This document shows, in pieces, positions 7,993-59,829 of a stretch of 64,000 bases of DNA. Source of the DNA: Planctomycetota bacterium. Its GTDB lineage: Bacteria; Planctomycetota; UBA1135; UBA2386. The notes under the pieces were generated by a model, which was not told the DNA's origin, did not search any database, and saw only the letters and a list, made by a program, of their open reading frames with translations. A program made the translations under genes and the position numbers. The stretch is from assembly GCA_016872675.1 (NCBI GenBank), contig VGZG01000001.1:77182-141181 (forward strand), read 5' to 3'. The first letter of the stretch is position 1; each line of letters begins with the position of its first letter.

Positions 7993-8628
7993 TCAGTCCG
8001 CGGCAGTCGTCGCGTCGACCACCGCCGCGTCGGCGGCGGCGATCGATGCCGGGGTCACCGCGACCATGCGTTCGACCAGCGCAACGACCGCCGACCACGC
8101 CGCGGAGTCGCCTTGCTGGCGGGCCAACTGCGCTGCCGCCGCGACGAAGCGCGCCGCCGGCACACCTTCGCCGGCGCGCTGCAGCACCCACAGGGCGGCG
8201 CGCTGGTGGCAGGCGTAGGCTTGCGCCAACCGCAATGCGGCGCGCGCGTCGTCGGCGGTGCGCAGCGCCGGCAGTCGCGCCAAGAGTTCGGCCTCGTCGC
8301 CGCGCCGCTCGCGGCGCAACCGCATCGGCAGCAGAACGCGGGCGACGCAGTCGACGACCAGCATGCCGCGCGCGCGTTCGACGGCGGCCGTCGCGCGCGT
8401 GCCGACCAGGATCGGCACCAGCGGCCGCAGGAAGCGGTCGCGCTGCGCGTCGGTCATCGCATCGTTGCTGGCGCGCACGAGCGCGCCGAGCACCGGGCAG
8501 GCGCAACCCGGTTCGTCGGTGTGCGCTTCGCCGGCGAGCCACGCCACCATCTCCATGGCGCAGACACCGTCATCGCGGGTCGGGTGCGCGCCGGCGCGCA
8601 AAGGCACATGTTCGATCGAACGCTGCAT
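7993..8628 (-). CDS. Hypothetical protein (conserved-looking, unknown function)
   Basis: 211-aa ORF with balanced composition. Cys-containing N-terminal block GVCAMEMVAWLAGEAHTDEPGCACPVLGALVRASND. No recognisable catalytic motif. Confidence 0.5.
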   Translation of the reverse strand: MQRSIEHVPLRAGAHPTRDDGVCAMEMVAWLAGEAHTDEPGCACPVLGALVRASNDAMTDAQRDRFLRPLVPILVGTRATAAVERARGMLVVDCVARVLLPMRLRRERRGDEAELLARLPALRTADDARAALRLAQAYACHQRAALWVLQRAGEGVPAARFVAAAAQLARQQGDSAAWSAVVALVERMVAVTPASIAAADAAVVDATTAAD

Positions 8629-8774
8629 TGGAAGAAACGCCGCGTTGGCGGCGCCGGAAGGGGAAAGCCGTGCAAGCCTACCTCGCCCGCGCGGCTGCGG
8701 CGGCCAAGCGGGATTGCGCTATTCCGTGCCCGCATCGTCGCGCCGATGCCATCGACGCCTCGCACTGCCCCGCG

Positions 8775-10463
8775 TCAGCGACCGCCGCGCAACTCCGGCG
8801 GCACGACGTCGACGGCGCCCACCGGCCGCGGCAAACCGAGACGTTCGGCGAACCACACCGCGCCGAAGCCTGGCGTGATCGGCTGCGCCACCACCGTCTT
8901 GCGCGGCACGCCGCGGCCGACGGCGATGCCCACCACCGCGCGGTCGTACGGGTGCGGGGTGCCGTGCGTCGCCGGCGTGGCGCCGTCGAGCCAGTGTGGC
9001 TTGACGACCAACTGCACCTCGCCGGCGCGACCGTCGTACAAGGCCTCGACGAGGCTCTGCGCGATTGGATCGTCGCCTGGCCCCTTGGCCAGCAAGTCCT
9101 CGGTGGCGTACGCCGCGGCGATGCCTGGCACCTTGGGCGCGATCGCAGCGAGCGCGCGCGCCGCCGCCGTGCGCACCTCGGCGAGCGACCGCGCGCCGCG
9201 CACCGCGTCGAGCGTCGCGTCATCGAAGAACACGGACCACTCGCCGACGTGGGCGAGGAACTTGCGTCCCGCCGGCGGTGCGCCGAACTCGTTGGCGAGA
9301 GCCTTCTCGCACGCGGCGCCGACGAAGGTCTGGATGACGCGACGGCCGGCGTCGACGCCCTGCGCGCGCACCCACTCGGGCGTCGGCGCGACACCGTGGT
9401 CGGCAGTGAGGAACAGCTCGTAGCGGCCGACGCCGACCTCGCGGTCGAGGCTGGCGAGCAGCAGCGCGAGATCGCGGTCGAGACGCAGCAGTCCGTCGCG
9501 CGCTTCCACCGAGTCGGCGCCGAAGACGTGGCCCATGACGTCCGTCGCCGCGAAGCCGACGCACAACAGGTCAACGATGTCGTCCTTGCCGAGGGCGAAC
9601 GCGCGGATCGCCGCCTCGGCGCACAGCCGCACGGCCGTGTTGCCGAAAGGGGATGCGTAGATCTGCGTGTAGTACGCGGGGCCCGGCTGCGGCAGGCCGC
9701 CAGTCAGCGGCTGCGGCAGCGTGCGCTGCTGGCTGCCGTTGCCGTGCGCGAGCTCGTACGGCCGGTTGTCGACGAGCAGCGCGTAGGCCGACGCCGGACC
9801 GCTGCATTCCCAGCTCGTGCCGAACCACTGGTCGAGCGGCTTCTTCGCGTTGAACTCGAGCAGCCACGCCGGCGCCGTCGCCGTCCACGCCGTGTTGGTG
9901 ACGAAGCGACCCGTCGACGACTCGCACCAGACCGCGAGGTCGGCCTTGGCGCCGGCCATCAGGATCGCGGAGCGGTCCTTCCAGGCGACGCTGACGGTGA
10001 CGCTGCGCGGATCGCGTGCTTCCATCGCTGCGGCCAGCGTCGGGGCGCGCTGCAACCCGGCGCCGCGGTTCTTGCCCTCGGGCAGGTCGGGGAGCGCGGC
10101 CATCGGCTCGTCGACGCAGTAGGTCTTGGCCGCCTTCTCGCGCACCCACCACTGGTTGCGCACGATGCCGTGCACGCGCGCGGCGACGCCGGTGCCGATC
10201 GTGGTGTGGCCGGGGCCGGTCTCGGTGCACGCATGCGCGTAGCGACAGTCGGCGAACTCGGCGCCCTCGGCGAGCAGGCGCGCGAAGCCGCCATCGGCGG
10301 CGAGGTGCGGCCGCGCGGCGTCGAACACCCACTGCGCGAGCTGGTCGACGGAGACCAACACGCACAACCGCGGCGCGGCCGCGGCGTCGGCGACGTCGGG
10401 GTCCTGGGCCACGGCCAGGGCCGCCAGCAGCGCGGCGGCGGACAGCGCGGCGAGGGGGTTCAT
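8775..10463 (-). CDS. Alkaline phosphatase superfamily protein (PafA/NPP-like phosphatase), secreted
   Basis: Start ATG 10463 (MNPLAALSAAALLAALAVAQ, signal peptide). Metal/nucleophile blocks: VLVSVDQL, CTETGPGHTTIGTG, ATDVMGHVFG, LTADHG. ATGA overlap with the upstream gene. Confidence 0.82.
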   Translation of the reverse strand: MNPLAALSAAALLAALAVAQDPDVADAAAAPRLCVLVSVDQLAQWVFDAARPHLAADGGFARLLAEGAEFADCRYAHACTETGPGHTTIGTGVAARVHGIVRNQWWVREKAAKTYCVDEPMAALPDLPEGKNRGAGLQRAPTLAAAMEARDPRSVTVSVAWKDRSAILMAGAKADLAVWCESSTGRFVTNTAWTATAPAWLLEFNAKKPLDQWFGTSWECSGPASAYALLVDNRPYELAHGNGSQQRTLPQPLTGGLPQPGPAYYTQIYASPFGNTAVRLCAEAAIRAFALGKDDIVDLLCVGFAATDVMGHVFGADSVEARDGLLRLDRDLALLLASLDREVGVGRYELFLTADHGVAPTPEWVRAQGVDAGRRVIQTFVGAACEKALANEFGAPPAGRKFLAHVGEWSVFFDDATLDAVRGARSLAEVRTAAARALAAIAPKVPGIAAAYATEDLLAKGPGDDPIAQSLVEALYDGRAGEVQLVVKPHWLDGATPATHGTPHPYDRAVVGIAVGRGVPRKTVVAQPITPGFGAVWFAERLGLPRPVGAVDVVPPELRGGR

Positions 10464-50496: not shown

Positions 50497-51786
50497 ATGG
50501 CGGCGCCCGCTGTTCCCCACTCGACGCAGGGACGACTGCGCGCCGCCGCATGGGTCCTGTACGACCTCGCCAACACCGTCTACGCGGCGACGCTGACGTT
50601 CCTGTTCACGCCGTACGTCAAGCAGGCGCTCGGCGACGACCTGCGCGGGCTCGGCCTCGTGCAGTTGGCCTCGATGGCGCTCGCCGGCCTGTTGGTGCCG
50701 GTGTTCGGCGCGCTGCTCGACCAGACCGCGCGCACGCGGGGCTACCTGACGATCGCGACGCTGCTGTGCATCGCCGCCACGGCCGCCTTCGGCGCCGACG
50801 TCGCACCGGGCTGGCTGCTGGCGTTCTTCTTCGTCGCCAACGTCACCTACAACCTCGGCCTGCTGTTCTACAACGCGCTGCTGCCGGCGGTCGCCGCGCC
50901 CGGCAGCGAAGGCCGGCTCGGCGGGCTCGGCACCGGGCTTGGCTACTTCGGCACGATCGTCGTGCTGGCGGTGCTGGTGCCGCTGCCGGTCGACGACGCG
51001 ACGCGCTTCCCGCTGGCGGCGCTGCTGTTCCTCGTCACCGCCGCGCCGTGTCTGCTGCTGGTGCGCGACCCGCGCCGGCCGCGCGGCAACGGCTCGGTGG
51101 CGGCGGTGCGCGCGGCCTTCGCGCGACTCGGCGCGACCCTGCGCGACCTGCCGCGCCAGCGCGCGCTGCTGTGGTTCCTGATCGGCAACTTCTGCCTCGT
51201 CGACGTGCTCAACACGGCGGTGCTCTACTTCGCCGACTTCACCACCTCGGTGTTCCAGAACGCCGCGGCGCTGGGCCCGCTGCAGTTGCTCGGCGTCGAG
51301 TTCGCCGGCGCGAACGCGATGCGCGACTTCGTCATCGTGCTCGGCCTGCTGCTCAACGGTCTCGCGCTCGTGTTCGGCATCGTGCAGGGCCGGCTCAGCG
51401 ACCGCGCGCCGCTGCGGGTGATGCGCAGCAGCGGCTTCGCGCTGCTGGTGGCGCTCGTCGGCGGGGCGCTGTTCGGCGGCCGCTCCGAGCTCGGCTACGC
51501 GCTCACGCTCGTCGTCGCCGGCGCGTACGGCCTCGCCGGCGTCTGGACCGCCGGCCGCACCGTCGTCGTGCTGCTGGCCCCGCCTGATCGCGTCGGCGAG
51601 TACTTCGGCCTCTACGGCATCACCGTCAAACTGTCGGTCGTCGGCAGCGCCGTCTACGGTTTCGTCGAATACTACGCCGGCGCCAAGCCGGCGATGCTGG
51701 CACAGAGCGCACAGCTGTTGATCGGCCTGCTGTGCCTCGCCATGGTGCGCGTTCCCGCCACGCCGCCAGCGGCTACCGCCCGATGA
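50497..51786 (+). CDS. MFS transporter (UMF1/Atg22-like family)
   Basis: Start ATG 50497. 12 TM segments. WVLYDLANTVYA opening is typical of the UMF1 family. Confidence 0.83.
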   Translation: MAAPAVPHSTQGRLRAAAWVLYDLANTVYAATLTFLFTPYVKQALGDDLRGLGLVQLASMALAGLLVPVFGALLDQTARTRGYLTIATLLCIAATAAFGADVAPGWLLAFFFVANVTYNLGLLFYNALLPAVAAPGSEGRLGGLGTGLGYFGTIVVLAVLVPLPVDDATRFPLAALLFLVTAAPCLLLVRDPRRPRGNGSVAAVRAAFARLGATLRDLPRQRALLWFLIGNFCLVDVLNTAVLYFADFTTSVFQNAAALGPLQLLGVEFAGANAMRDFVIVLGLLLNGLALVFGIVQGRLSDRAPLRVMRSSGFALLVALVGGALFGGRSELGYALTLVVAGAYGLAGVWTAGRTVVVLLAPPDRVGEYFGLYGITVKLSVVGSAVYGFVEYYAGAKPAMLAQSAQLLIGLLCLAMVRVPATPPAATAR

Positions 51787-52772
51787 CCGCCGACGATGAC
51801 ACGCCTGCCCGCGCGCCGCGCGAAGCGCTGTGGCAGCGCGCCGCCGTTGGCGTCGTCGCCGCACTGATCGCCGCGATCGGCGCGCTGCCGACGGCGCTCG
51901 CGTACGGCTTCGGCACGCTGCTGGCCGTGCCGTGGTTCCTGTGGTGGTGCGTCACCGACCGCGGCGGCCGCAGCAGCAGCGGCTACTGGCGCAACTGCCG
52001 CATCGTCTTCCGTCCTGGCTCGCCGCTCGGCCCGACGCGGCCGCCGCGGCACCTCTGGCGCTGGTCGCAGCACATCGCCTGGATCGTCATCGACTTCTGC
52101 CGCATGCGCCGGATCACCGCAGCCAACGTCGCGCAGCACGTCGACCTCGTCGAGTTCGCGCGAATGCGGGCCGCCTTCGACCAGGGCAAGGGCCTGATCT
52201 GCGCCACCGGCCACATCGGCGTCTGGGACGTCGCCGGCCACGCCACCGTGCTGCTCGGCATACCGCTGACTAGCGTGTTCCGGCCAAGCCCGCTGCCGGC
52301 GCTCAACCGGCTGATCGAGCGGCTGCGCACCGGCGCCGGCCAGACCGTCGTCGCGCGCAAGAACGTCCTGCGCACGCTGCTCAAGGTGCTCGGGCGCAAA
52401 GAGGCCGTCGGCATCCTCACCGACGGCGGTGGCAAGCACAGCGCCGTCGAAGCGCCGTTCCTCGGCACCGCCTCGCAAACCGTCGCCAGCCCAGCGCTGC
52501 TGCACCTCGCCACCGGCGCGCCGATCGCCGTCGTCGCCGTGCTGCGTACCGGACCGATGCGCTACCGCATGCGCGTGCTCGACGTCATCGCCGACGCCGG
52601 CACCGGCGACCGCGAAGCCGACATGCTGGCGATCACGGCGCGCATCAACCGCGGCCTGACCCAGGCGATCGCCGAGGCGCCCGAGCAGTGGTTCTGGCAG
52701 GGACGGCGGTTTCGCCACCAGCCGCGGGGCGAGACGCCCGGGCCGGACGGACTGCCGCCGCAGGCAGGGTGA
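51783..52772 (+). CDS. Lipid A biosynthesis (LpxL/HtrB-type) lauroyl/LPLAT-family acyltransferase
   Basis: ATGA overlap with the MFS gene. N-terminal TM. Catalytic block ATGHIGVWDVAG (H-X4-D, compare HxGNWE). ILTDGGG block and C-terminal PEQWFWQGRRF (family PEQYxWxHRRFK-like). Confidence 0.8.
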   Translation: MTADDDTPARAPREALWQRAAVGVVAALIAAIGALPTALAYGFGTLLAVPWFLWWCVTDRGGRSSSGYWRNCRIVFRPGSPLGPTRPPRHLWRWSQHIAWIVIDFCRMRRITAANVAQHVDLVEFARMRAAFDQGKGLICATGHIGVWDVAGHATVLLGIPLTSVFRPSPLPALNRLIERLRTGAGQTVVARKNVLRTLLKVLGRKEAVGILTDGGGKHSAVEAPFLGTASQTVASPALLHLATGAPIAVVAVLRTGPMRYRMRVLDVIADAGTGDREADMLAITARINRGLTQAIAEAPEQWFWQGRRFRHQPRGETPGPDGLPPQAG

Positions 52773-52815: not shown

Positions 52816-52852
52816 CCTTCACGGCCCCTTCACGGAAGTCACTCGGTGACTT
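52816..52852 (+). promoter_or_regulatory. Candidate Pho box: CCTTCACGG direct repeat (11-bp phase) plus adjacent palindrome AAGTCAC-TCG-GTGACTT
   Basis: CCTTCACGG at 52816-52824 and 52827-52835. Perfect 7-bp inverted repeat at 52836-52852. The whole element lies 64-100 nt upstream of the pstS ATG. Confidence 0.4.
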
Positions 52853-52915
52853 AACGCAGCCAACGATGCTGCTGTGGCGCATTTGCGTTCAGCCCACCCC
52901 CCAGAGACCCACCGC

Positions 52916-53770
52916 ATGAAGCTCGCCCTCACCCTCGCCTCCGCCTGCCTCGTGACCGTCGCCTGCGGCGGCGGCAAGAAGGAGATCCAGAACCTCGGCT
53001 CCGACACCATGCTCGAGGTCGCCGGCGCGCTCGCCGAGGCCTACCAGAAGGTCAAGCCGGAGGTCATCGTCTCGGTGTCCGGCGGCGGCTCGGGCGTCGG
53101 CATCGCGGCGATGATGTCCGGCGACGTCGACATCGCCAACAGCAGCCGCAAGATGAAGGAGAAGGAGGAGGAGGAGGCGAAGAAGCACGGCTACTCCCCC
53201 ACCCACACGTCGATCGGCTACGACGGCATCGCGATCTACGTCCACAAGGACAACCCGCTCAAGGCGGTCACCATGGCGCAGCTCAAGGAGCTCTTCGGCG
53301 ACGGCGGCAAGGTCGCCAAGTGGAGCGACCTCGGCATCGACCTCGGCGGCGACGCCGACAAGGTCGTGCTCGCCAGCCGCCAGAACAACAGCGGCACGTA
53401 CGAGTTCTTCCGCGAGGCCGTGCTCGGCGGCGACAAGGGCCGCTTCAAGCCGGAGTGCAACAACCTCAACGGCAGCAAGGACGTCGTCGACTTCTGCGCC
53501 AAGACGAAGAGCGCGATCGGCTACAGCGGCATCGCCTACGCCACCGACCAGGTGCGCGTGGTCCCGGTGATCAAGGCCGACGGCGCGCCGGCGGTCATGC
53601 CGACGGTCGACAGCGTGCTCGACGGCAGCTACGCCATCCGCCGCCCGCTCTACATGATCACCAAGGGCGCCGCGACCGGCGACACCAAGGACTACCTCGA
53701 CTGGATCGTCGGCGACGCCGGCCAGAAGGTGCTCCAGGACAAGGGCTACATCCCGCTGCGCAAGCTATGA
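52916..53770 (+). CDS. pstS: Phosphate ABC transporter substrate-binding lipoprotein
   Basis: Start ATG 52916. Lipobox LASACLVTVAC. PBP blocks GSDTMLEVAG, VSGGGSGVGI, NSGTYEFF, GYSGIAY. Confidence 0.93.
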   Translation: MKLALTLASACLVTVACGGGKKEIQNLGSDTMLEVAGALAEAYQKVKPEVIVSVSGGGSGVGIAAMMSGDVDIANSSRKMKEKEEEEAKKHGYSPTHTSIGYDGIAIYVHKDNPLKAVTMAQLKELFGDGGKVAKWSDLGIDLGGDADKVVLASRQNNSGTYEFFREAVLGGDKGRFKPECNNLNGSKDVVDFCAKTKSAIGYSGIAYATDQVRVVPVIKADGAPAVMPTVDSVLDGSYAIRRPLYMITKGAATGDTKDYLDWIVGDAGQKVLQDKGYIPLRKL

Positions 53771-53836: not shown

Positions 53837-54949
53837 GTGCCGCCGGCCGCCGTCGCGGCCGGCACCCCTGACCCATCGAGACTCCCCACCGTGTCCCACT
53901 ACGAAGAACGCCTGCAGCGCGATCTCAACTGGATCCAGGACCTCGTCGGCATCGTCGGCCAGGCGGTGACCAAGGCGATCGACGACGCGGCGACGTCGAT
54001 CCTGCGGGTCGACAAGGACCTGGCGGCGGAGACCGTGGTCGGCGACTACACGACCAATCGCCAGACCCGCGAGCTCGACCGCCTCTGCCACGCGTTCGTC
54101 GCCCGCCACCTGCCGAGCGCCGGCCACCTGCGCTACGTCTCGGCGGTGCTGCGGCTCAACATCGCGCTCGAGCGCATCGGCGACTACGCCGCGACGATCT
54201 CGCGCAGCGCCGCGCAGTTGACGGCGCCGCCCCCAGCCGTGGTCGCGCGCAACATCGAGATGATGTGCGAGCAGGCGCGCCGCATGCTGGCCGAAGGCAT
54301 GCGCAGCTTCCAGCACAAGGACGTCGCGCTCGCCAACAACACGCTCGCGTCGGCAGCGCAGTTCGCCCGCCACTTCGACAAGGTGTTCGCCGACCTGGTC
54401 AAGGAAGGCGAGGCCGACAGCCGCCCGGTTGCCGAGTTGTTCTCGCTGATGGCGACGCTCAACCGCCTCGAGCGCGTCATCCACCAAGCCAAGAACATCT
54501 GTGAGGAGACGATCTTCGTCGCCAGCGGCAAGACCAAGGGCGAGAAGACCTTCCAGATCCTGTTCGTCGATGCCAAGAACAACGGCCTGAGCCAGCTGGC
54601 CGAGCACTTCACGCGCAAGGCCTTCCCGCAGAGCGGCCGCTACCGCAGCGCCGGCTGGGACGCCGCCGAGGAGGTCGATCCGGCGTGGGGCCGCTTCGGC
54701 CAGACGGTCGGCGTCGACCTGCAGAAGGCATGGCCGACGCCGCTGGCGTCGCTACTGCCGCAACTCGACGATTACCAGATCGTCGTCGGCTTCGGCAAGG
54801 AAGCGCGCGACAAGGTCGGCCGCGTGCCATTCCACACTACGATGCTCATCTGGGACGCGCCGACCGGCGACCCCGAGACGGCGTACCGGAGCCTGACGCC
54901 GAAGGTCCGCGAGCTGATGGAGCGCCTGCGCGGCGAACAGGCGAGCTGA
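53837..54949 (+). CDS. phoU: PhoU-domain protein fused to a degenerate low-molecular-weight phosphatase/ArsC-like domain
   Basis: N-terminal two-repeat PhoU (LERIGDYAATI; LNRLERVIHQAKNICEE). C-terminal ~135 aa: FQILFVDAKNNGLSQLAEHF...YRSAGWD...YQIVVGFG...LIWDAP. An alternative GTG start at 53891 (VSHYEERLQ) is likely. Confidence 0.85.
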   Translation: MPPAAVAAGTPDPSRLPTVSHYEERLQRDLNWIQDLVGIVGQAVTKAIDDAATSILRVDKDLAAETVVGDYTTNRQTRELDRLCHAFVARHLPSAGHLRYVSAVLRLNIALERIGDYAATISRSAAQLTAPPPAVVARNIEMMCEQARRMLAEGMRSFQHKDVALANNTLASAAQFARHFDKVFADLVKEGEADSRPVAELFSLMATLNRLERVIHQAKNICEETIFVASGKTKGEKTFQILFVDAKNNGLSQLAEHFTRKAFPQSGRYRSAGWDAAEEVDPAWGRFGQTVGVDLQKAWPTPLASLLPQLDDYQIVVGFGKEARDKVGRVPFHTTMLIWDAPTGDPETAYRSLTPKVRELMERLRGEQAS

Positions 54950-54951
54950 CC

Positions 54952-55902
54952 GTGGCCGCGAACGCGTACCCGCCGACCGCGCCGCCGGGCCAGCCCGCAT
55001 GGGCGGCGGCGCTAGACACGCGCAACAGCGCGTGGTGGCAGGACCTCGTCATGCGTGTCGTTGTCATGGCCGGCGGCATCTCGGCGATCTTGTTCATCGT
55101 CGCGATCTTCGGCTTCATCGCCAGCCAAGGCATCGAGTTCATCGTCCACCGCCTCGACCTCGGCGCCCTGCTGACCGGCGTGCGCTGGGAGCCGACGGTC
55201 GAGCCGCCGAGCTACGGCGCACTGCCGCTGATCGCCGGCACGGCGTTCATCACGCTCGTTGCGATGGCGATCGCCGTGCCGCTGGCGTTCGGCGCCGCGG
55301 TCTACGTCGGCGAGTTCGCGCGCGGCAAGCAGCGCGAGTGGCTCAAGATCGGCATCGAGCTGCTGGCGGCGATCCCGTCGGTCGTCTGGGGCGTCATCGG
55401 CCTGCACGTGATGAAGCCGGTCATCCAGGACCTGTTCGGCGTCCAGGTCGGCCTCAACGTGCTCAACGCCGGCATCATCCTCGGGCTGATGGCGGCGCCG
55501 ATCATGGCGACGATCGCCGAGGACGCGCTCAAGGCCGTGCCCGACACCTACCGCGAAGCCGCGGAGTCGCTCGGCGCGACCAAGTGGCAGGTGGTCTGGA
55601 AGGTCGTGCTGCCGCACGCGCGCCCCGGCCTGTCGGCCGCCGTGCTGCTCGGCATCGGCCGCGCCTTCGGCGAGACCATCGCCGTGCTGATGGCGAGCGG
55701 CCATCGGCTGATGATCCCGGAGAGCATCTTCGACTCGGCCGCGACGCTGACGGCGACGATCGCCGCCGAGCTCGGCGAAGCCGCGGTCGGCGGCGACCAC
55801 TACCAGGTCCTGTTCGTCCTCGGGATGCTGCTGTTCGTCATCACCTTCGCGATCAACCTGACGGCCGACTGGATCGTGCGCGGCCGGCGGAGGCAGGCAT
55901 GA
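54952..55902 (+). CDS. pstC: Phosphate ABC transporter permease PstC
   Basis: GTG start 54952. EAA-type loop and PstC blocks (LPLIAGTAFITLVAM, REAAESLGATKWQVVWKVVLP). Confidence 0.92.
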   Translation: MAANAYPPTAPPGQPAWAAALDTRNSAWWQDLVMRVVVMAGGISAILFIVAIFGFIASQGIEFIVHRLDLGALLTGVRWEPTVEPPSYGALPLIAGTAFITLVAMAIAVPLAFGAAVYVGEFARGKQREWLKIGIELLAAIPSVVWGVIGLHVMKPVIQDLFGVQVGLNVLNAGIILGLMAAPIMATIAEDALKAVPDTYREAAESLGATKWQVVWKVVLPHARPGLSAAVLLGIGRAFGETIAVLMASGHRLMIPESIFDSAATLTATIAAELGEAAVGGDHYQVLFVLGMLLFVITFAINLTADWIVRGRRRQA

Positions 55903-56783
55903 CCGGCGCCAATCCGTTCGCGCCCACCTCGCTCGAAGGCCGCAGCCTCGCCAGCCAGGGCGTCGCCAAGGCCGGCTTCCTGGTGATCACGCTGCTGCTG
56001 CTGATCCCGGCGCTCGGCATCGTCGGCGTGCTGCTGGTCGAGGGCTGGCCGGGGATGACGCTGTCGTTCCTCCTCGAGAAGCCGCGCGAGAACGGCGCCG
56101 CCGGCGGCATCGCCACGGCGCTGGTCGGCACCATCTGGCTGACCGCCGTCGCGCTCGTCGTGGCGCTGCCCGTCGGCGTCGCCGCCGCGATCTACCTCAG
56201 CGAGTACGCGCGCGACAACTGGCTGACCCGCACGATCAACGTCGCCATCGTCAACCTCGCCGGCGTGCCGTCGATCGTGCACGCGCTGTTCGGTGTCGGC
56301 GCCTTCGTGCACTTCCTGCAGTTCGGCAAGTCGATCCTGGCGGCGAGCTGCACGCTCGCGGTCATGACGCTGCCGGTCGTGATCGTCGCCACCCGCGAGT
56401 CGCTGCAGGCGGTGCCCAAGGCCTTCCGCGAGGCGACCTGGAACCTCGGCGCGACGCGCTGGCAGACCATCTGGCGAATCGTGCTGCCGAACTCCGGCAG
56501 CGGCATCCTGACCGGCCTGATCCTCGTCGTCTGCCGCGCCGTCGGCGAGACCGCGCCGATCATGTTCACCGGCGCCGTGTTCTTCCGACAGCTGTTCCCC
56601 AACGGCGTGTTCGACAAGACCATGGCCTTGTCGCTGCACCTGTTCAACGTCTCGACGCAGGTCACCAACGTGCCGCGACACGTGCCGTTCGCCGTCGCGC
56701 TGACGCTGATCCTGGTCGTGCTGTCGATGAACGCGCTCGCCATCTGGTTTCGCATGCGGCTGCGCGGGAGGAAGAAGTGGTGA
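55899..56783 (+). CDS. pstA: Phosphate ABC transporter permease PstA
   Basis: ATGA overlap with pstC. PstA blocks (GGIATALVGTIWL, FREATWNLGATRWQTIWRIVLP, GETAPIMFTG). Confidence 0.92.
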   Translation: MTGANPFAPTSLEGRSLASQGVAKAGFLVITLLLLIPALGIVGVLLVEGWPGMTLSFLLEKPRENGAAGGIATALVGTIWLTAVALVVALPVGVAAAIYLSEYARDNWLTRTINVAIVNLAGVPSIVHALFGVGAFVHFLQFGKSILAASCTLAVMTLPVVIVATRESLQAVPKAFREATWNLGATRWQTIWRIVLPNSGSGILTGLILVVCRAVGETAPIMFTGAVFFRQLFPNGVFDKTMALSLHLFNVSTQVTNVPRHVPFAVALTLILVVLSMNALAIWFRMRLRGRKKW

Positions 56784-57565
56784 CCGCCGGCCCGTCCCCC
56801 GTTGCGGCGCCGCCGGCGCTGCTCACCGTGCGCAACCTGTCGATCCGCTACGGCGACAAGGTGGCGCTCCAGGGCGTCGACCTCGACGTCCGGCCCAACG
56901 AGATCGTCGGCATCATCGGCCCGGCCAACGCCGGCAAGACGTCGTTCCTGCGCGCGCTCAACCGCATGGACGCGCTCGTGCCGGAGATGCAGGTCGACGG
57001 CACGATCACCTTCGCCGGCCGCGACCTGCGCGACGTGCGCAACCTGTACGCGCTGCGCAGCCGCATCGGCGTGGTGTTCCCGCTGCCTGTCGGCCTGCCG
57101 CTGTCGATCTACGACAACGTCGCGCTCGCCCCGCGCCTGCGCGGCGTCAAGGCCAGGTCCGAGCTCGACGGCATCGTCGAACGCAGTCTGCGGCGCGCGG
57201 CGCTCTGGGACGAGGTCAAGGACCGCCTCAAGAGCCTCGGCTCGCTGCTCAGCGGCGGCCAACAGCAGCGCCTGACGATCGCGCGCGCGTTGTCGCAGGA
57301 GCCGGAGCTGCTGCTGCTCGACGAGTTCTCGATCGCCATCGACCCGGTGACGACGATGCGCATCGAGGAGGTGCTCAAGGAACTGCGGCAAGAACTCAGC
57401 ATCGTGCTGGTGACCAACCTCGTGCAGCAGGCGCGCCGCCTCGCCGCGCGCACCGCCTTCTTCCTCGGCGGCCGATGCGTCGAGATCATCGCGACCGAGC
57501 TCCTCTTCAGCGGCGGCGCCAAGGACCAGCGCACGATCGACTACCTGGAGGGACGCTTTGGCTGA
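56777..57565 (+). CDS. PstB paralogue with degenerate catalytic loops (Q-loop Gln to Pro, H-loop His to Asn) but canonical LSGGQQQRL signature
   Basis: Co-linear with PstB, including the C-terminal DYLEGRFG. Walker A GPANAGKTS (56918-56944). VVFP in place of MVFQ (CCG 57080-57082). LSGGQQQRL (57248-57274). LLLDEF. VTN in place of VTH (AAC 57416-57418). Confidence 0.9.
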   Translation: MVTAGPSPVAAPPALLTVRNLSIRYGDKVALQGVDLDVRPNEIVGIIGPANAGKTSFLRALNRMDALVPEMQVDGTITFAGRDLRDVRNLYALRSRIGVVFPLPVGLPLSIYDNVALAPRLRGVKARSELDGIVERSLRRAALWDEVKDRLKSLGSLLSGGQQQRLTIARALSQEPELLLLDEFSIAIDPVTTMRIEEVLKELRQELSIVLVTNLVQQARRLAARTAFFLGGRCVEIIATELLFSGGAKDQRTIDYLEGRFG

Positions 57566-58376
57566 TTCCTTGTCCCTGAAGACCCGCACCACGATCCTCA
57601 ACCTGCCCAGACACCGGGCGCCGGCGATCGAGGTGCAGGACCTGAGCCTCTGGTACGGCACGTTCCAGGCGCTGCACGACGTCACGCTGACCATCAAGTC
57701 GGGCATCGTCACGGCGCTGATCGGCCCGTCCGGCTGCGGCAAATCGACGCTGCTGCGCTCGTGCAACCGCATCAACGAGCGCCTGGGCTACGTCTCCACC
57801 ACCGGCACCGTCAAGGTGCTCGGACACGACGTCTACGGCCCCGAGGCGTCGGCGATCCAGGTGCGCCGCCACGTCGGCATGGTCTTTCAGCGGCCCAACC
57901 CGCTGCCGCTGTCGATCCGCGACAACGTGCTGTTCAGTCATCGCCTGCACGCCGAGCGCAAGGCGACACGAGCCGAGGAAGAAGCGATGCTCGAGCAGGC
58001 GCTGCGCGAGGTGCTGCTCTGGGACCGCGTCAAGGACCGCCTCGACCGCAAAGCGACGGTGCTCTCGCTCGAAGAGCAGCAGAAGTTGTGCATCGCGCGC
58101 CTACTGCCGACCAAGCCGTCGGTGCTGCTGATGGACGAGCCGTGCAGCGCGCTCGACCCCGAGGCGACACGCGCCGTCGAAAACCTGATCTGGGACCTGC
58201 GCGGCCACTACTCGATCCTGATCGTCACCCACAACATGGCCCAGGCCCGCCGCGCCAGCGACGAGTGCGTGTTCATGCTGATGGGCCGCGTCGTCGAGCA
58301 CTCCGAGACCGAAGACATGTTCGTCGCGCCGCAGAAGCCGGAGACCTCGGAATACATCGAGGGCCGCTTCGGCTGA
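57558..58376 (+). CDS. pstB: Phosphate import ATP-binding protein PstB (canonical Walker A/B, Q- and H-loops; degenerate signature LSLEEQQKL)
   Basis: TTG start with GGAGG 6 nt upstream. GPSGCGKST, MVFQRPNPLP, LSLEEQQKL (58062-58088), LLMDEPCSALDP, VTHNM, C-terminal EYIEGRFG. Confidence 0.92.
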   Translation: MADSLSLKTRTTILNLPRHRAPAIEVQDLSLWYGTFQALHDVTLTIKSGIVTALIGPSGCGKSTLLRSCNRINERLGYVSTTGTVKVLGHDVYGPEASAIQVRRHVGMVFQRPNPLPLSIRDNVLFSHRLHAERKATRAEEEAMLEQALREVLLWDRVKDRLDRKATVLSLEEQQKLCIARLLPTKPSVLLMDEPCSALDPEATRAVENLIWDLRGHYSILIVTHNMAQARRASDECVFMLMGRVVEHSETEDMFVAPQKPETSEYIEGRFG

Positions 58377-58458
58377 CGGCGCGCGGCGACCGCCGAACGC
58401 TTCCGCCGACCTGCAGGTGGCCGGGCCGGCGGCCGTCGCGCTATCCTGCGCGGCCCCG

Positions 58459-59829
58459 ATGAACGCGCTGCCGCTGCTGCTCCTGTCCCTGTCCGTCGCC
58501 CTGCCACAGGGGCCGGACGAGGCGATCGCCACCTACCAGCTCGACGGCCGCACGCTGCCAGTGACGCGCACCGACGTGGCGCTCGAGATGGCCTTCCACC
58601 TGCGGCGGCGCGACCGCGGCCAGCAGGCCGTCGAACAGCTCGTCGCGGTGACCATCACGCGGCAGGCCGCCGAGGCGAAGAAACTGATGCCGGCCGAAGC
58701 CGACGTGCGGGCGTTCTGGACCGACCTGCAGGAGCAGTTGCGCGCCGCCGGCCGCCGGCCGGAGGACATCCCCGCCGTGCGCAACACCGGTGAGGCGCAG
58801 TGGCTCGCCGACCTCGCCGTGCAATTGGCGCAGAAGCGCGTCGTCCGCCAGGAGCTCGGCCTGAAGGCCGACGAGGAGGTCAGCGGCGACATGCTGACGC
58901 TCTGGCTGCAGGAGCAGCGCAAGAACGCGCTCGTCGTCACCGACCCCGACCTGCTGCCCGCCGGCGCAGTGGCGCGCGTCGGCACGACCGAGATCCCGCT
59001 GATCGAGCTTGGCCTGTTGCTGCTGCGCACCGCCGAGGACGACGAGCGCGACCGCTTCGTCAAGCAAGTCGTCTACCTCGCCGCGCTCGAGGCGGCGGCG
59101 CGCAAGGACGGCGTGCAGGTCACCGCCGCCGACCTCGACGCCGCCGTGCAGAAGCACAAGGACGACGCGCAGAAGGACCCGCGCTACCGCGGCGTCACCT
59201 ACGAGAACCTGCTCAAGGCCGAGGGCCTGACGCCGCAGTCGATCCGCGACCTGCGCGTCTTCCGCGGCCAGATCCTGCTCGACAAGCTGGCGCGCCTGCG
59301 CTTCCGCGACGCCGACCTCGCGGCCGAGCTACAGGACAACCGCCAGGCCGTGCGCGACCGCCACGGCGCGCGCCGGCGCCTGGGCCTCATCTACCTGCGC
59401 GCGCTCGACGAACCCAACCCGCTGGCGCCGCGCACCATGGCCGACGCCGAGCGCGAGCTCGGAGCGGCGCGCGAGCGGCTGCAGAAGGATCCGTTCGACG
59501 TCGTCGCCCGCGTCGTCAGCGAGCACAACGCCAGCAAGGCCCAGGGCGGCGACGCCGGCTGGCACCGACGTCGCTCCGACAATATGCCCGATGCGGTGCT
59601 CGCCGCGGCATTCGCGCAGGCGGCCGGCGACGTCTCGGCGCCGGTCCGCGTCGACGACGGCGTGACGCTGGTGAAGACGCTGGAGATCGAACCCGAGCCG
59701 GACGACGCGACGCTGCGACAGCGGCTGCGCGAGGGCAAGCAAAAGGATCTGCAGAACCAGCTATTCGACGCCTGCAAGCTGACGGTGGCAAAGACGTCTG
59801 CGCCGACGCCGACGAAAGGACGCAAGTGA
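58459..59829 (+). CDS. Secreted parvulin-type peptidyl-prolyl isomerase (SurA/PrsA-like chaperone)
   Basis: Start ATG 58459 (MNALPLLLLSLSVALP). C-terminal parvulin block SEHNASKAQGGDAGWHRR...MPDAVLAAAFAQAAGDVSAPVRVDDGVTLVK. Confidence 0.75.
   Translation: MNALPLLLLSLSVALPQGPDEAIATYQLDGRTLPVTRTDVALEMAFHLRRRDRGQQAVEQLVAVTITRQAAEAKKLMPAEADVRAFWTDLQEQLRAAGRRPEDIPAVRNTGEAQWLADLAVQLAQKRVVRQELGLKADEEVSGDMLTLWLQEQRKNALVVTDPDLLPAGAVARVGTTEIPLIELGLLLLRTAEDDERDRFVKQVVYLAALEAAARKDGVQVTAADLDAAVQKHKDDAQKDPRYRGVTYENLLKAEGLTPQSIRDLRVFRGQILLDKLARLRFRDADLAAELQDNRQAVRDRHGARRRLGLIYLRALDEPNPLAPRTMADAERELGAARERLQKDPFDVVARVVSEHNASKAQGGDAGWHRRRSDNMPDAVLAAAFAQAAGDVSAPVRVDDGVTLVKTLEIEPEPDDATLRQRLREGKQKDLQNQLFDACKLTVAKTSAPTPTKGRK

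Follow-up and report, generated by a model that had tools for sequence, protein, structure and literature searches.

A tandem pstB pair with reciprocal motif degeneracy in a planctomycetal pst operon: a predicted asymmetric heterodimer of the phosphate importer

The Pst system is the main high-affinity phosphate importer of bacteria and, via PstB and PhoU, also an input to the Pho regulon, and how the conformations of PstB are read out is still unsettled. Here we analyse a pst operon of a Planctomycetota bacterium that carries two adjacent pstB genes, pstB1 and pstB2 (copies 1 and 2). It is located in a stretch of 64,000 nucleotides, hereafter the window (assembly GCA_016872675.1, contig VGZG01000001.1, positions 77,182 to 141,181). 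According to our analysis, PstB1 and PstB2 most probably form an obligate heterodimer, one of whose ATP sites would be consensus and catalytic and the other degenerate. This asymmetric arrangement had been proposed in the initial annotation of the sequence. It is supported by reciprocal motif changes that are conserved in both gene families, by the pair being the sole PstB in this genome and in a closed chromosome, by co-evolution of the two families, and by a glutamate in the signature of PstB2 that corresponds to the G551E substitution of CFTR.

Motif states of PstB1 and PstB2

The two genes overlap and are read in the same direction:

56777..57565, plus strand: pstB1 (copy 1), putative degenerate-head subunit; GTG start, 262 amino acids (aa)
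57558..58376, plus strand: pstB2 (copy 2), putative catalytic-head subunit; TTG start, 272 aa

Both open reading frames (ORFs) are intact. The GTG start of pstB1 overlaps the stop codon of pstA and is preceded by the Shine-Dalgarno-like GGGAGGAAG. The TTG start of pstB2 overlaps the pstB1 stop by 8 nt, with GGAGGG located 5 nt upstream, and an alternative in-frame TTG is present at 57570. The proteins end alike, PstB1 in ...DYLEGRFG and PstB2 in ...EYIEGRFG. The conserved tail ...LEGRFG of PstB1 is encoded by CTGGAGGGA (window 57546-57560), which at the same time provides the GGAGG ribosome-binding site 5 nt before the TTG of PstB2, and the protein tail of PstB1 therefore doubles as a coupling signal for pstB2.

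As initially annotated, both products are full-length homologues of PstB. The PstB equivalog model (TIGR00972) is the best family for both copies by more than 70 bits, and the alignments with E. coli PstB run over the whole length of both proteins (E 1e-62 for copy 1 and 1e-66 for copy 2), which are only 38% identical to each other. They are encoded together with pstS, pstC and pstA, that is, in the position of the ATPase of a Pst operon. The model scores of 277.8 bits (copy 1) and 308.7 bits (copy 2) are both below the curated cut-off of 343.2 bits, so that annotation pipelines under-call such subunits or label them generically.

Aligning both copies with E. coli PstB, as contained in the PstSCAB cryo-EM entries 9k3x and 9k3s, and with each other set the motif registers as follows:

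Walker A: GPANAGKTS in copy 1; GPSGCGKST in copy 2
Q-loop: GVVFPLP in copy 1 (Gln to Pro, P102); GMVFQRP in copy 2
Signature: LSGGQQQRL in copy 1; LSLEEQQKL in copy 2 (G171L, G172E, R176K)
Walker B and D-loop: LLLDEFSIAIDP in copy 1 (DE followed by Phe, F184; D-loop SIAID); LLMDEPCSALDP in copy 2
H-loop: LVTNLV in copy 1 (His to Asn, N214); IVTHNM in copy 2

The motif states initially reported were right in every detail when checked against E. coli PstB (9k3x). The Gln, His and signature residues are truly replaced, and none of them is merely displaced in either alignment. Each copy thus lacks the full canonical motif set of ATP-binding cassette (ABC) ATPases as it is found in 64 canonical PstBs. 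Copy 1 is devoid of the Q-loop Gln and the H-loop His, and copy 2 of both signature Gly, while Walker A, Q-loop, Walker B, D-loop and H-loop of copy 2 are all canonical. The pattern had been judged unlikely to arise by chance. In line with this, none of the 64 canonical PstBs departs at the Q-loop Gln, the H-loop His or either signature Gly (100% conservation), while their replacements are fixed, or nearly so in the case of the signature Leu, in the respective copy families.

An ABC ATP site is built from Walker A, Walker B, Q-loop and H-loop of one subunit and the signature of the other (PMC7756269). In order to assign the changes to sites, all columns conserved to at least 85% in the 64 canonical PstBs were taken, and the departures of each copy family were scored. 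In copy 1, they are found in Walker A (S50A, G51, C52, S55T, T56S), in the Q-loop (Q102P, followed by N105V, P106G and F107L, which face the membrane subunit), after Walker B and in the D-loop (P184F, S186I), and in the H-loop (H214N, N215L, M216V). The departures of copy 2 lie in the signature helix (G171L, G172E, R176K, A184P), plus a few positions after the H-loop. Among the ATP-contacting motifs, 13 changes, fixed or relaxed, belong to the composite site of copy 1 head and copy 2 signature and 0 to the reciprocal site; these are not independent events and the count is descriptive rather than a probability, the asymmetry being complete. The pair hence consists of two non-identical nucleotide-binding domains (NBDs) with all of these deviations in one composite site and the other site complete. 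PstB1 retains the conserved A-loop Tyr, Lys and Thr of Walker A, and the Walker B pair Asp-Glu (D182 and E183), which does not vary within the copy 1 family. The loss of this Glu that is usual in degenerate sites of exporters is not seen here.

Conservation, spread and origin of the pair

Homologues were searched for in one genome per species. In 23 loci the best match was 53-83% identical to copy 1, below which identity fell sharply to 51% or less (ordinary PstB). In 22 of the 23, the next gene is copy-2-like (57-82% identical) and read from the same strand. At one of these (L012) it is shortened by a contig end, and at the remaining locus (L030) the contig stops just past the copy-1-like gene, so that no PstB2 is seen. 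The order of copy 1 before copy 2 is constant and the genes are always adjacent, in loci that belong, by their record titles, to at least eight phyla: Planctomycetota, Pseudomonadota (Chromatiaceae, Accumulibacter), Myxococcota, Acidobacteriota, Poribacteria, Verrucomicrobiota (including Limisphaera sp., L026, a cultured carrier), Binatota and Bdellovibrionota. Among close homologues, those of copy 1 are recorded under metagenome-assembled genomes of Planctomycetota.

The reciprocal pattern is kept throughout these loci. All relatives of copy 1 display GPAxxGK(T/S), a Q-loop ending in PLPVG, LSGGQQQRL, DEFSIAxDP and VTN(L/I), with the Q-loop Pro, the H-loop Asn and the signature invariant in 24 of 24 sequences. 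The relatives of copy 2 display GPSGCGK(S/T)T, GMVFQRPNP, DEP(C/A)S(A/S)LD and VTH(N/S)M together with the signature L-x-(L/M)-E-x-QQKL. In this family Walker A, Q-loop, Walker B and H-loop are invariant (22/22), as is the signature Glu (22/22), while the signature Leu is present in 95%. Mean column identity amounts to 69% in the copy 1 family and 68% in the copy 2 family, and no variation is seen at the replaced positions P102, F184 and N214 of copy 1 and E172 of copy 2. Decay to a pseudogene in relatives can be dismissed for either copy, as the genes are intact and under strong conservation, replaced positions included, across at least eight phyla.

The 65 lower-scoring PstBs, among them five tandem pairs of Bacillota or Gemmatimonadota, are canonical in their motifs. 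The sole exception is a third paralogue in a Poribacteria locus (L022), a strongly degenerate PstB-like gene at 8477-9274 downstream of the pair that is followed by a PhoU-like ORF at 9282-9899. Its motifs read GPTNSGKST, GMVFRKP, LSIGQQQLL, LIFDEPCGELDP and FATNKR, and in the tree a very long branch joins it to the copy 1 clade.

The frequency of the copy 1 type was estimated with a profile built from 24 copy 1 sequences in evenly drawn genome samples of three phyla, in which 7-13% of the genomes are carriers:

Planctomycetota sample: copy 1 type in 23 of 301 genomes
Acidobacteriota sample: copy 1 type in 40 of 301 genomes
Pseudomonadota sample: copy 1 type in 29 of 401 genomes

Planctomycetota genomes of the copy 1 type score at least 358 bits, the next score being 315, and in Pseudomonadota the matches seem to cluster in a single subgroup of the sampled genomes. 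No third PstB-like gene is present in about half of the Planctomycetota carriers, including one single-contig genome of 6.6 Mb. In carriers of other phyla the pair is found alone in 8 of 14 cases, one of them the closed 3.87 Mb chromosome OZ241363.1, and accompanied by a canonical PstB in the other 6. The assembly containing the window (3.58 Mb, 95% complete, Planctomycetota) was searched as a whole with the PstB model and encodes no PstB homologues other than pstB1 and pstB2; the next match is an unrelated ABC ATPase at 132 bits. Since the pair is the only PstB in many carriers, a closed chromosome included, it is sufficient as sole Pst ATPase.

Reciprocal degeneracy is also found in a second, less derived lineage of tandem pairs, represented by four loci (L089, L090, L091 and L094) in the Planctomycetota genomes G051, G197, G275 and G229. 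Here the upstream gene carries GMVFA(L/V/T)P (Gln to Ala) and VTNN (His to Asn), while its signature LSGGQQQRL is intact and its DEPCSGLDP nearly canonical. In the downstream gene, which is otherwise canonical, the signature reads LSLEQKQ, LSAEQQQ or LSGEAQQ. Two of the four upstream subunits are also without the aromatic A-loop residue. With the copy 1 profile, these pairs (300-315 bits) are not separated from canonical PstB (296 bits).

A maximum-likelihood tree was computed with a quick method, and its support values, given here from the Shimodaira-Hasegawa-like approximate likelihood ratio test (SH-aLRT), are to be taken cautiously. The relatives of copy 1 and the less derived upstream genes form one clade (SH-aLRT 95), the relatives of copy 2 and the less derived downstream genes another (SH-aLRT 80), and the less derived pairs branch at the base of each. 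The copy 1 relatives (SH-aLRT 100) and the copy 2 relatives (98-100) are each monophyletic and stand on long stems. When the tree was rooted with two other ABC ATPases of the same genome, the outgroup branch measured 8.4 substitutions per site and the node deciding on the sisterhood of the two copies received a support of 23-65. Common to both lineages are the loss of the Q-loop Gln and the H-loop His-to-Asn change in one subunit and a Glu at the second signature Gly in the other. Because these core changes are shared, the sequences suggest that the asymmetry arose once, long ago, and was specialised further thereafter.

The two families have evolved together. Their pairwise identities correlate with a Pearson r of 0.88 over the 22 loci with both genes, a value that was reached in 0 of 2000 permutations of a Mantel test. 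The copies of the window share 73-76% identity with their counterparts in Gammaproteobacteria and Myxococcota, but 59% with those in a Pirellulales genome from the same phylum as the window, which argues that the cassette has moved between phyla as a unit.

The pst operon and its PhoU fusion

The region from 52.9 to 58.4 kb of the window is a single plus-strand operon in the order pstS-phoU*-pstC-pstA-pstB1-pstB2 (phoU* denoting the fusion), whose junctions are overlapping or tightly spaced. The features preceding the two pstB genes are:

52816..52852, no strand assigned: Pho-box-like element; two exact CCTTCACGG copies 11 nt apart, then the palindrome AAGTCACTCGGTGACTT (sequence reading)
52874..53770, plus strand: pstS, periplasmic phosphate-binding protein (PstS family); TIGR02136 216.6 bits (above the cut-off of 206.6), PF12849
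53837..54949, plus strand: phoU fusion, PhoU plus a C-terminal domain of ~135 aa; TIGR02135 124.2 bits over residues 25-232
~54946..55902 (start approximate), plus strand: pstC permease; coupling helix REAAESLGATKWQ, identity to pstC of related cassettes
55899..56783, plus strand: pstA permease; coupling helix REATWNLGATRWQ, identity to pstA of related cassettes

The true start of pstS is probably the ATG at 52916 (MKLALTL..., a lipoprotein-like signal). As the repeat element is situated ~65-100 nt upstream of this likely start codon, we consider it a candidate Pho box.

Related cassettes usually comprise pstS, phoU fused to an ArsC-like domain, pstC, pstA, pstB1 and pstB2, with identities to the window of 36-67% for pstS, 45-82% for pstC and 48-83% for pstA. 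The C-terminal domain of the PhoU fusion resembles thioredoxin-type arsenate reductases and low-molecular-weight phosphatases in a PDB sequence search (3t38, E 1.7e-4; 1y1l), while a Pfam search with it yielded nothing meaningful. Its CX5R loop reads VDAKNNGLS, with Cys changed to Asp and Arg to Leu, and by its sequence the ArsC-like domain is dead. In the initial annotation, the signalling end of this system looked rebuilt in view of the pstB pair together with a PhoU fusion and a relocated phoU. The fusion is indeed present between pstS and pstC, but there is no additional, relocated gene, as the fusion is the single PhoU of the genome (PF01895 occurs nowhere else in the assembly). A PhoU with the same C-terminal domain is encoded in 14 of the 20 related loci that have enough flank, in nine of them between pstS and pstC and in five just upstream of pstS. 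The loci L022 and L028 have a plain PhoU downstream instead.

The coupling helices of the permeases are not equally affected. In PstA of the cassettes the helix reads REA(C/T)WN(M/L)GATRWQ (REATWNLGATRWQ in the window), compared with r-E-a-s-l-a-l-G-a-t-k-w in canonical PstA, and the helix of PstC is much less changed (EAA region, variant versus canonical consensus). The cassette-specific (C/T)WN of PstA is a hint that the altered Q-loop region of PstB1 may dock on this permease.

The operon is flanked by an acyltransferase gene upstream (51732-52772) and a gene for a SurA/parvulin-type peptidyl-prolyl isomerase downstream (58417-59829). In the two closest Planctomycetota loci (L009 and L010; 56-72% identity) both genes flank the cassette as well, and this synteny is absent in other phyla. 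The pattern fits local vertical descent, with the pst cassette alone transferred between phyla. A PhoB/PhoR-like gene pair of the same assembly is unlinked to the operon and located on another contig (C104).

Predicted ATPase mechanism, rival explanations and known systems

We posit that pstB1 and pstB2 encode unlike halves of one ATPase, which would power the single PstS-PstC-PstA importer of the organism. Because each ABC site combines the head of one subunit with the signature of the other, such a heterodimer would hold two different sites. The consensus site, composed of the PstB2 head and the PstB1 signature LSGGQ, would bind and hydrolyse ATP. The degenerate site, composed of the PstB1 head without Q-loop Gln and H-loop His and the PstB2 signature LSLEE, would perform little or no hydrolysis, as its residue changes and the precedents of CFTR G551E and Pdr5 suggest. 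In Pdr5, activity is destroyed when a second consensus site is restored. The signature of PstB1 is invariant despite the degenerate head of this subunit, which is difficult to understand if it does not serve the head of its partner PstB2.

Judging from the motifs, neither homodimer would have a complete site. PstB1 alone would be without Gln and His in both of its sites, and PstB2 alone would carry Glu at the second signature Gly in both. In CFTR, G551E, like G551D, turns ATP into an inhibitory ligand at the facing site, where dimerisation of the NBDs is taken to be prevented by charge repulsion with the gamma-phosphate (PMC4178940). The invariant signature Glu of PstB2 is the same substitution, and a PstB2 homodimer should therefore be defective in both sites. 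Indirect support for the heterodimer comes from the strict adjacency of the genes, their co-evolution (r = 0.88) and the fact that the genome encodes no further PstB.

Nucleotide is probably still bound at the degenerate site, since strong selection has kept the Tyr of the A-loop, Lys and Thr of Walker A and the Asp-Glu of Walker B in PstB1. This site might act as a hinge or allosteric site at which ATP stays bound, as in heterodimeric ABC exporters. The signature Glu of PstB2, lying beside the position of the gamma-phosphate, could equally favour ADP or hinder tight closure. A more far-reaching possibility, which we regard as quite improbable, is that the odd site is a purpose-built regulatory pocket and not a dead remnant. 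Because the invariant Glu of PstB2 occupies the place of the ATP gamma-phosphate, the site could close on ADP or ADP + Pi instead of ATP, and the duty cycle of the importer would then respond directly to cytosolic Pi or the ADP/ATP ratio. Working with the PhoU that is fused to a dead ArsC-like domain (an oxyanion-binding fold), it would be part of a rebuilt device for sensing internal phosphate and for trans-inhibition. If so, the cost of transport would be halved to one ATP per cycle as a side effect.

The motif states, their conservation, the co-occurrence and co-evolution of the genes and the lack of a further PstB are observed here, and from them we infer that the subunits pair, that one site is catalytic and what the odd site may do. 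Several points weigh against an asymmetric heterodimer with one catalytic site. The altered D-loop of PstB1 (Ser186 to Ile) reaches, by general ABC geometry (PMC7756269), toward the consensus site, and not every change is therefore confined to the degenerate one. PstB1 further keeps the catalytic Glu of Walker B, the loss of which is called a hallmark of degenerate sites (PMC7544095). The H-loop His of MRP1 NBD2 can be replaced by Asn or Gln with transport remaining wild-type-like (PMC7756269), so that, with the catalytic Glu kept, slow hydrolysis at the odd site is possible. PstB1 and PstB2 of E. faecalis have non-overlapping cellular roles (PMC12096839), and tandem PstBs therefore need not act only as one motor.

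These points lead to rival explanations. Both sites of a PstB1-PstB2 heterodimer might be catalytic, the odd one being tuned, slower or differently regulated rather than dead. The conserved Walker B Asp-Glu, Walker A Lys-Thr and A-loop Tyr of PstB1 would be in agreement with this, as would the tolerance of MRP1 NBD2 to the loss of its His (PMC7756269). However, three independent catalytic elements of one site are jointly and invariantly altered (the Q-loop Gln, the H-loop His and both signature Gly), and the signature change from Gly to Glu blocks site closure in CFTR (PMC4178940), which makes two active sites unlikely in our view. Were PstB2 instead to drive PstCA as a homodimer, with PstB1 as an accessory pseudo-ATPase in signalling, for example with PhoU and PhoR, the G551E-like LSLEE would sit in both sites and the perfectly conserved LSGGQQQRL of PstB1 would be left without a partner. 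Such a division of labour has a parallel in the non-overlapping functions of the adjacent E. faecalis pstB1 and pstB2 (PMC12096839). The remodelled PhoU, often present in the cassette, and the unlinked PhoB/PhoR-like pair of the genome also speak for it. We nevertheless consider it highly improbable, given in addition that the two families co-evolve tightly and that the cassette-specific coupling helix of PstA is consistent with docking of the altered subunit.

According to a further explanation, one copy would be a functionless, decaying duplicate and the complementary pattern a coincidence. The scores of both copies below the curated PstB cut-off and their long stem branches might be read in this way, but conservation effectively refutes it. 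Both copies are intact and without stops in every locus examined, mean column identity is 68-69% over at least eight phyla with the replaced residues invariant, the copy 1 type occurs in three phyla in 7-13% of the genomes sampled, and many carriers have no PstB besides the pair.

We therefore favour the heterodimer of PstB1 and PstB2 with one consensus and one degenerate site. As a natural and widespread asymmetric pair that is often the sole Pst ATPase, it offers a ready system for asking whether a type I importer can work with a single hydrolysis per cycle, what is contributed by a site that does not hydrolyse, and how asymmetry of PstB is coupled to PhoU.

Among known systems, PstSCAB of E. 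coli is similar in having PstS, a heterodimeric PstC/PstA channel and PstB-type NBDs without regulatory domain. Its two PstB subunits are identical (PDB 9k3s, 9k3x, 9k3y; PMC12976172), being encoded by one pstB gene and forming two equivalent consensus sites, whereas the window has two diverged genes (38% identical) and one consensus plus one degenerate site. Unlike in E. coli, phoU of the window is an internal gene of the operon and carries a fused ArsC-like domain. The initial statement that Pst importers are classically PstB homodimers needs to be qualified, as tandem pstB pairs with both copies canonical are known in Bacillota (PMC12096839). Examples are PstB1/PstB2 of E. faecalis (PMC12096839) and PstBA/PstBB of B. 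subtilis (PMC11466899), for which a heterodimeric NBD pair is assumed. The Bacillota pairs share with the window the two adjacent pstB genes after pstA. However, four Bacillota tandem loci of our scan (L047, L062, L077 and L087) have canonical motifs in both copies, and the tandem PstBs of Bacillota fall among canonical PstBs in the tree, while the copies of the window belong to separate, long-stemmed clades.

Importers with one deviating ATP site are represented by the fused NBDs of RbsA and NupO (PMC11466899), the only importers for which we found consensus and degenerate sites mentioned in the literature searched. In these, two NBDs of an unrelated subfamily are joined in one chain and Walker A Lys or Walker B residues are lost, whereas the pair of the window consists of separate subunits and keeps both. 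No prior description of a degenerate PstB pair was found in the literature searched, which mostly excluded subscription journals, so that this absence is not proof. Tandem pstB genes and degenerate ABC sites are each already known, and their combination in a Pst system is apparently undescribed.

Pairs of a consensus and a degenerate site are frequent in ABC exporters (PMC3971661), and the closest likeness in site architecture is found in the heterodimeric exporters TM287/288, TAP1/2, MRP1, CFTR and Pdr5 (PMC7756269, PMC3971661). There, too, reciprocal deviations fall in one composite site, the other site is fully consensus, and the H-loop His is lost. In yeast Pdr5, the natural signature of the degenerate site is LNVEQ, with the same change of Gly to Glu as in PstB2 (PMC7756269). 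The window pair differs from these exporters in being part of a type I importer with free-standing NBD subunits, in keeping the Walker B Glu that is lost in most degenerate exporter sites, and in having lost the Q-loop Gln, a loss outside the usual exporter pattern. A PstB1-PstB2 heterodimer would thus extend degenerate-site asymmetry, described mainly for exporters, to a classical binding-protein-dependent importer.

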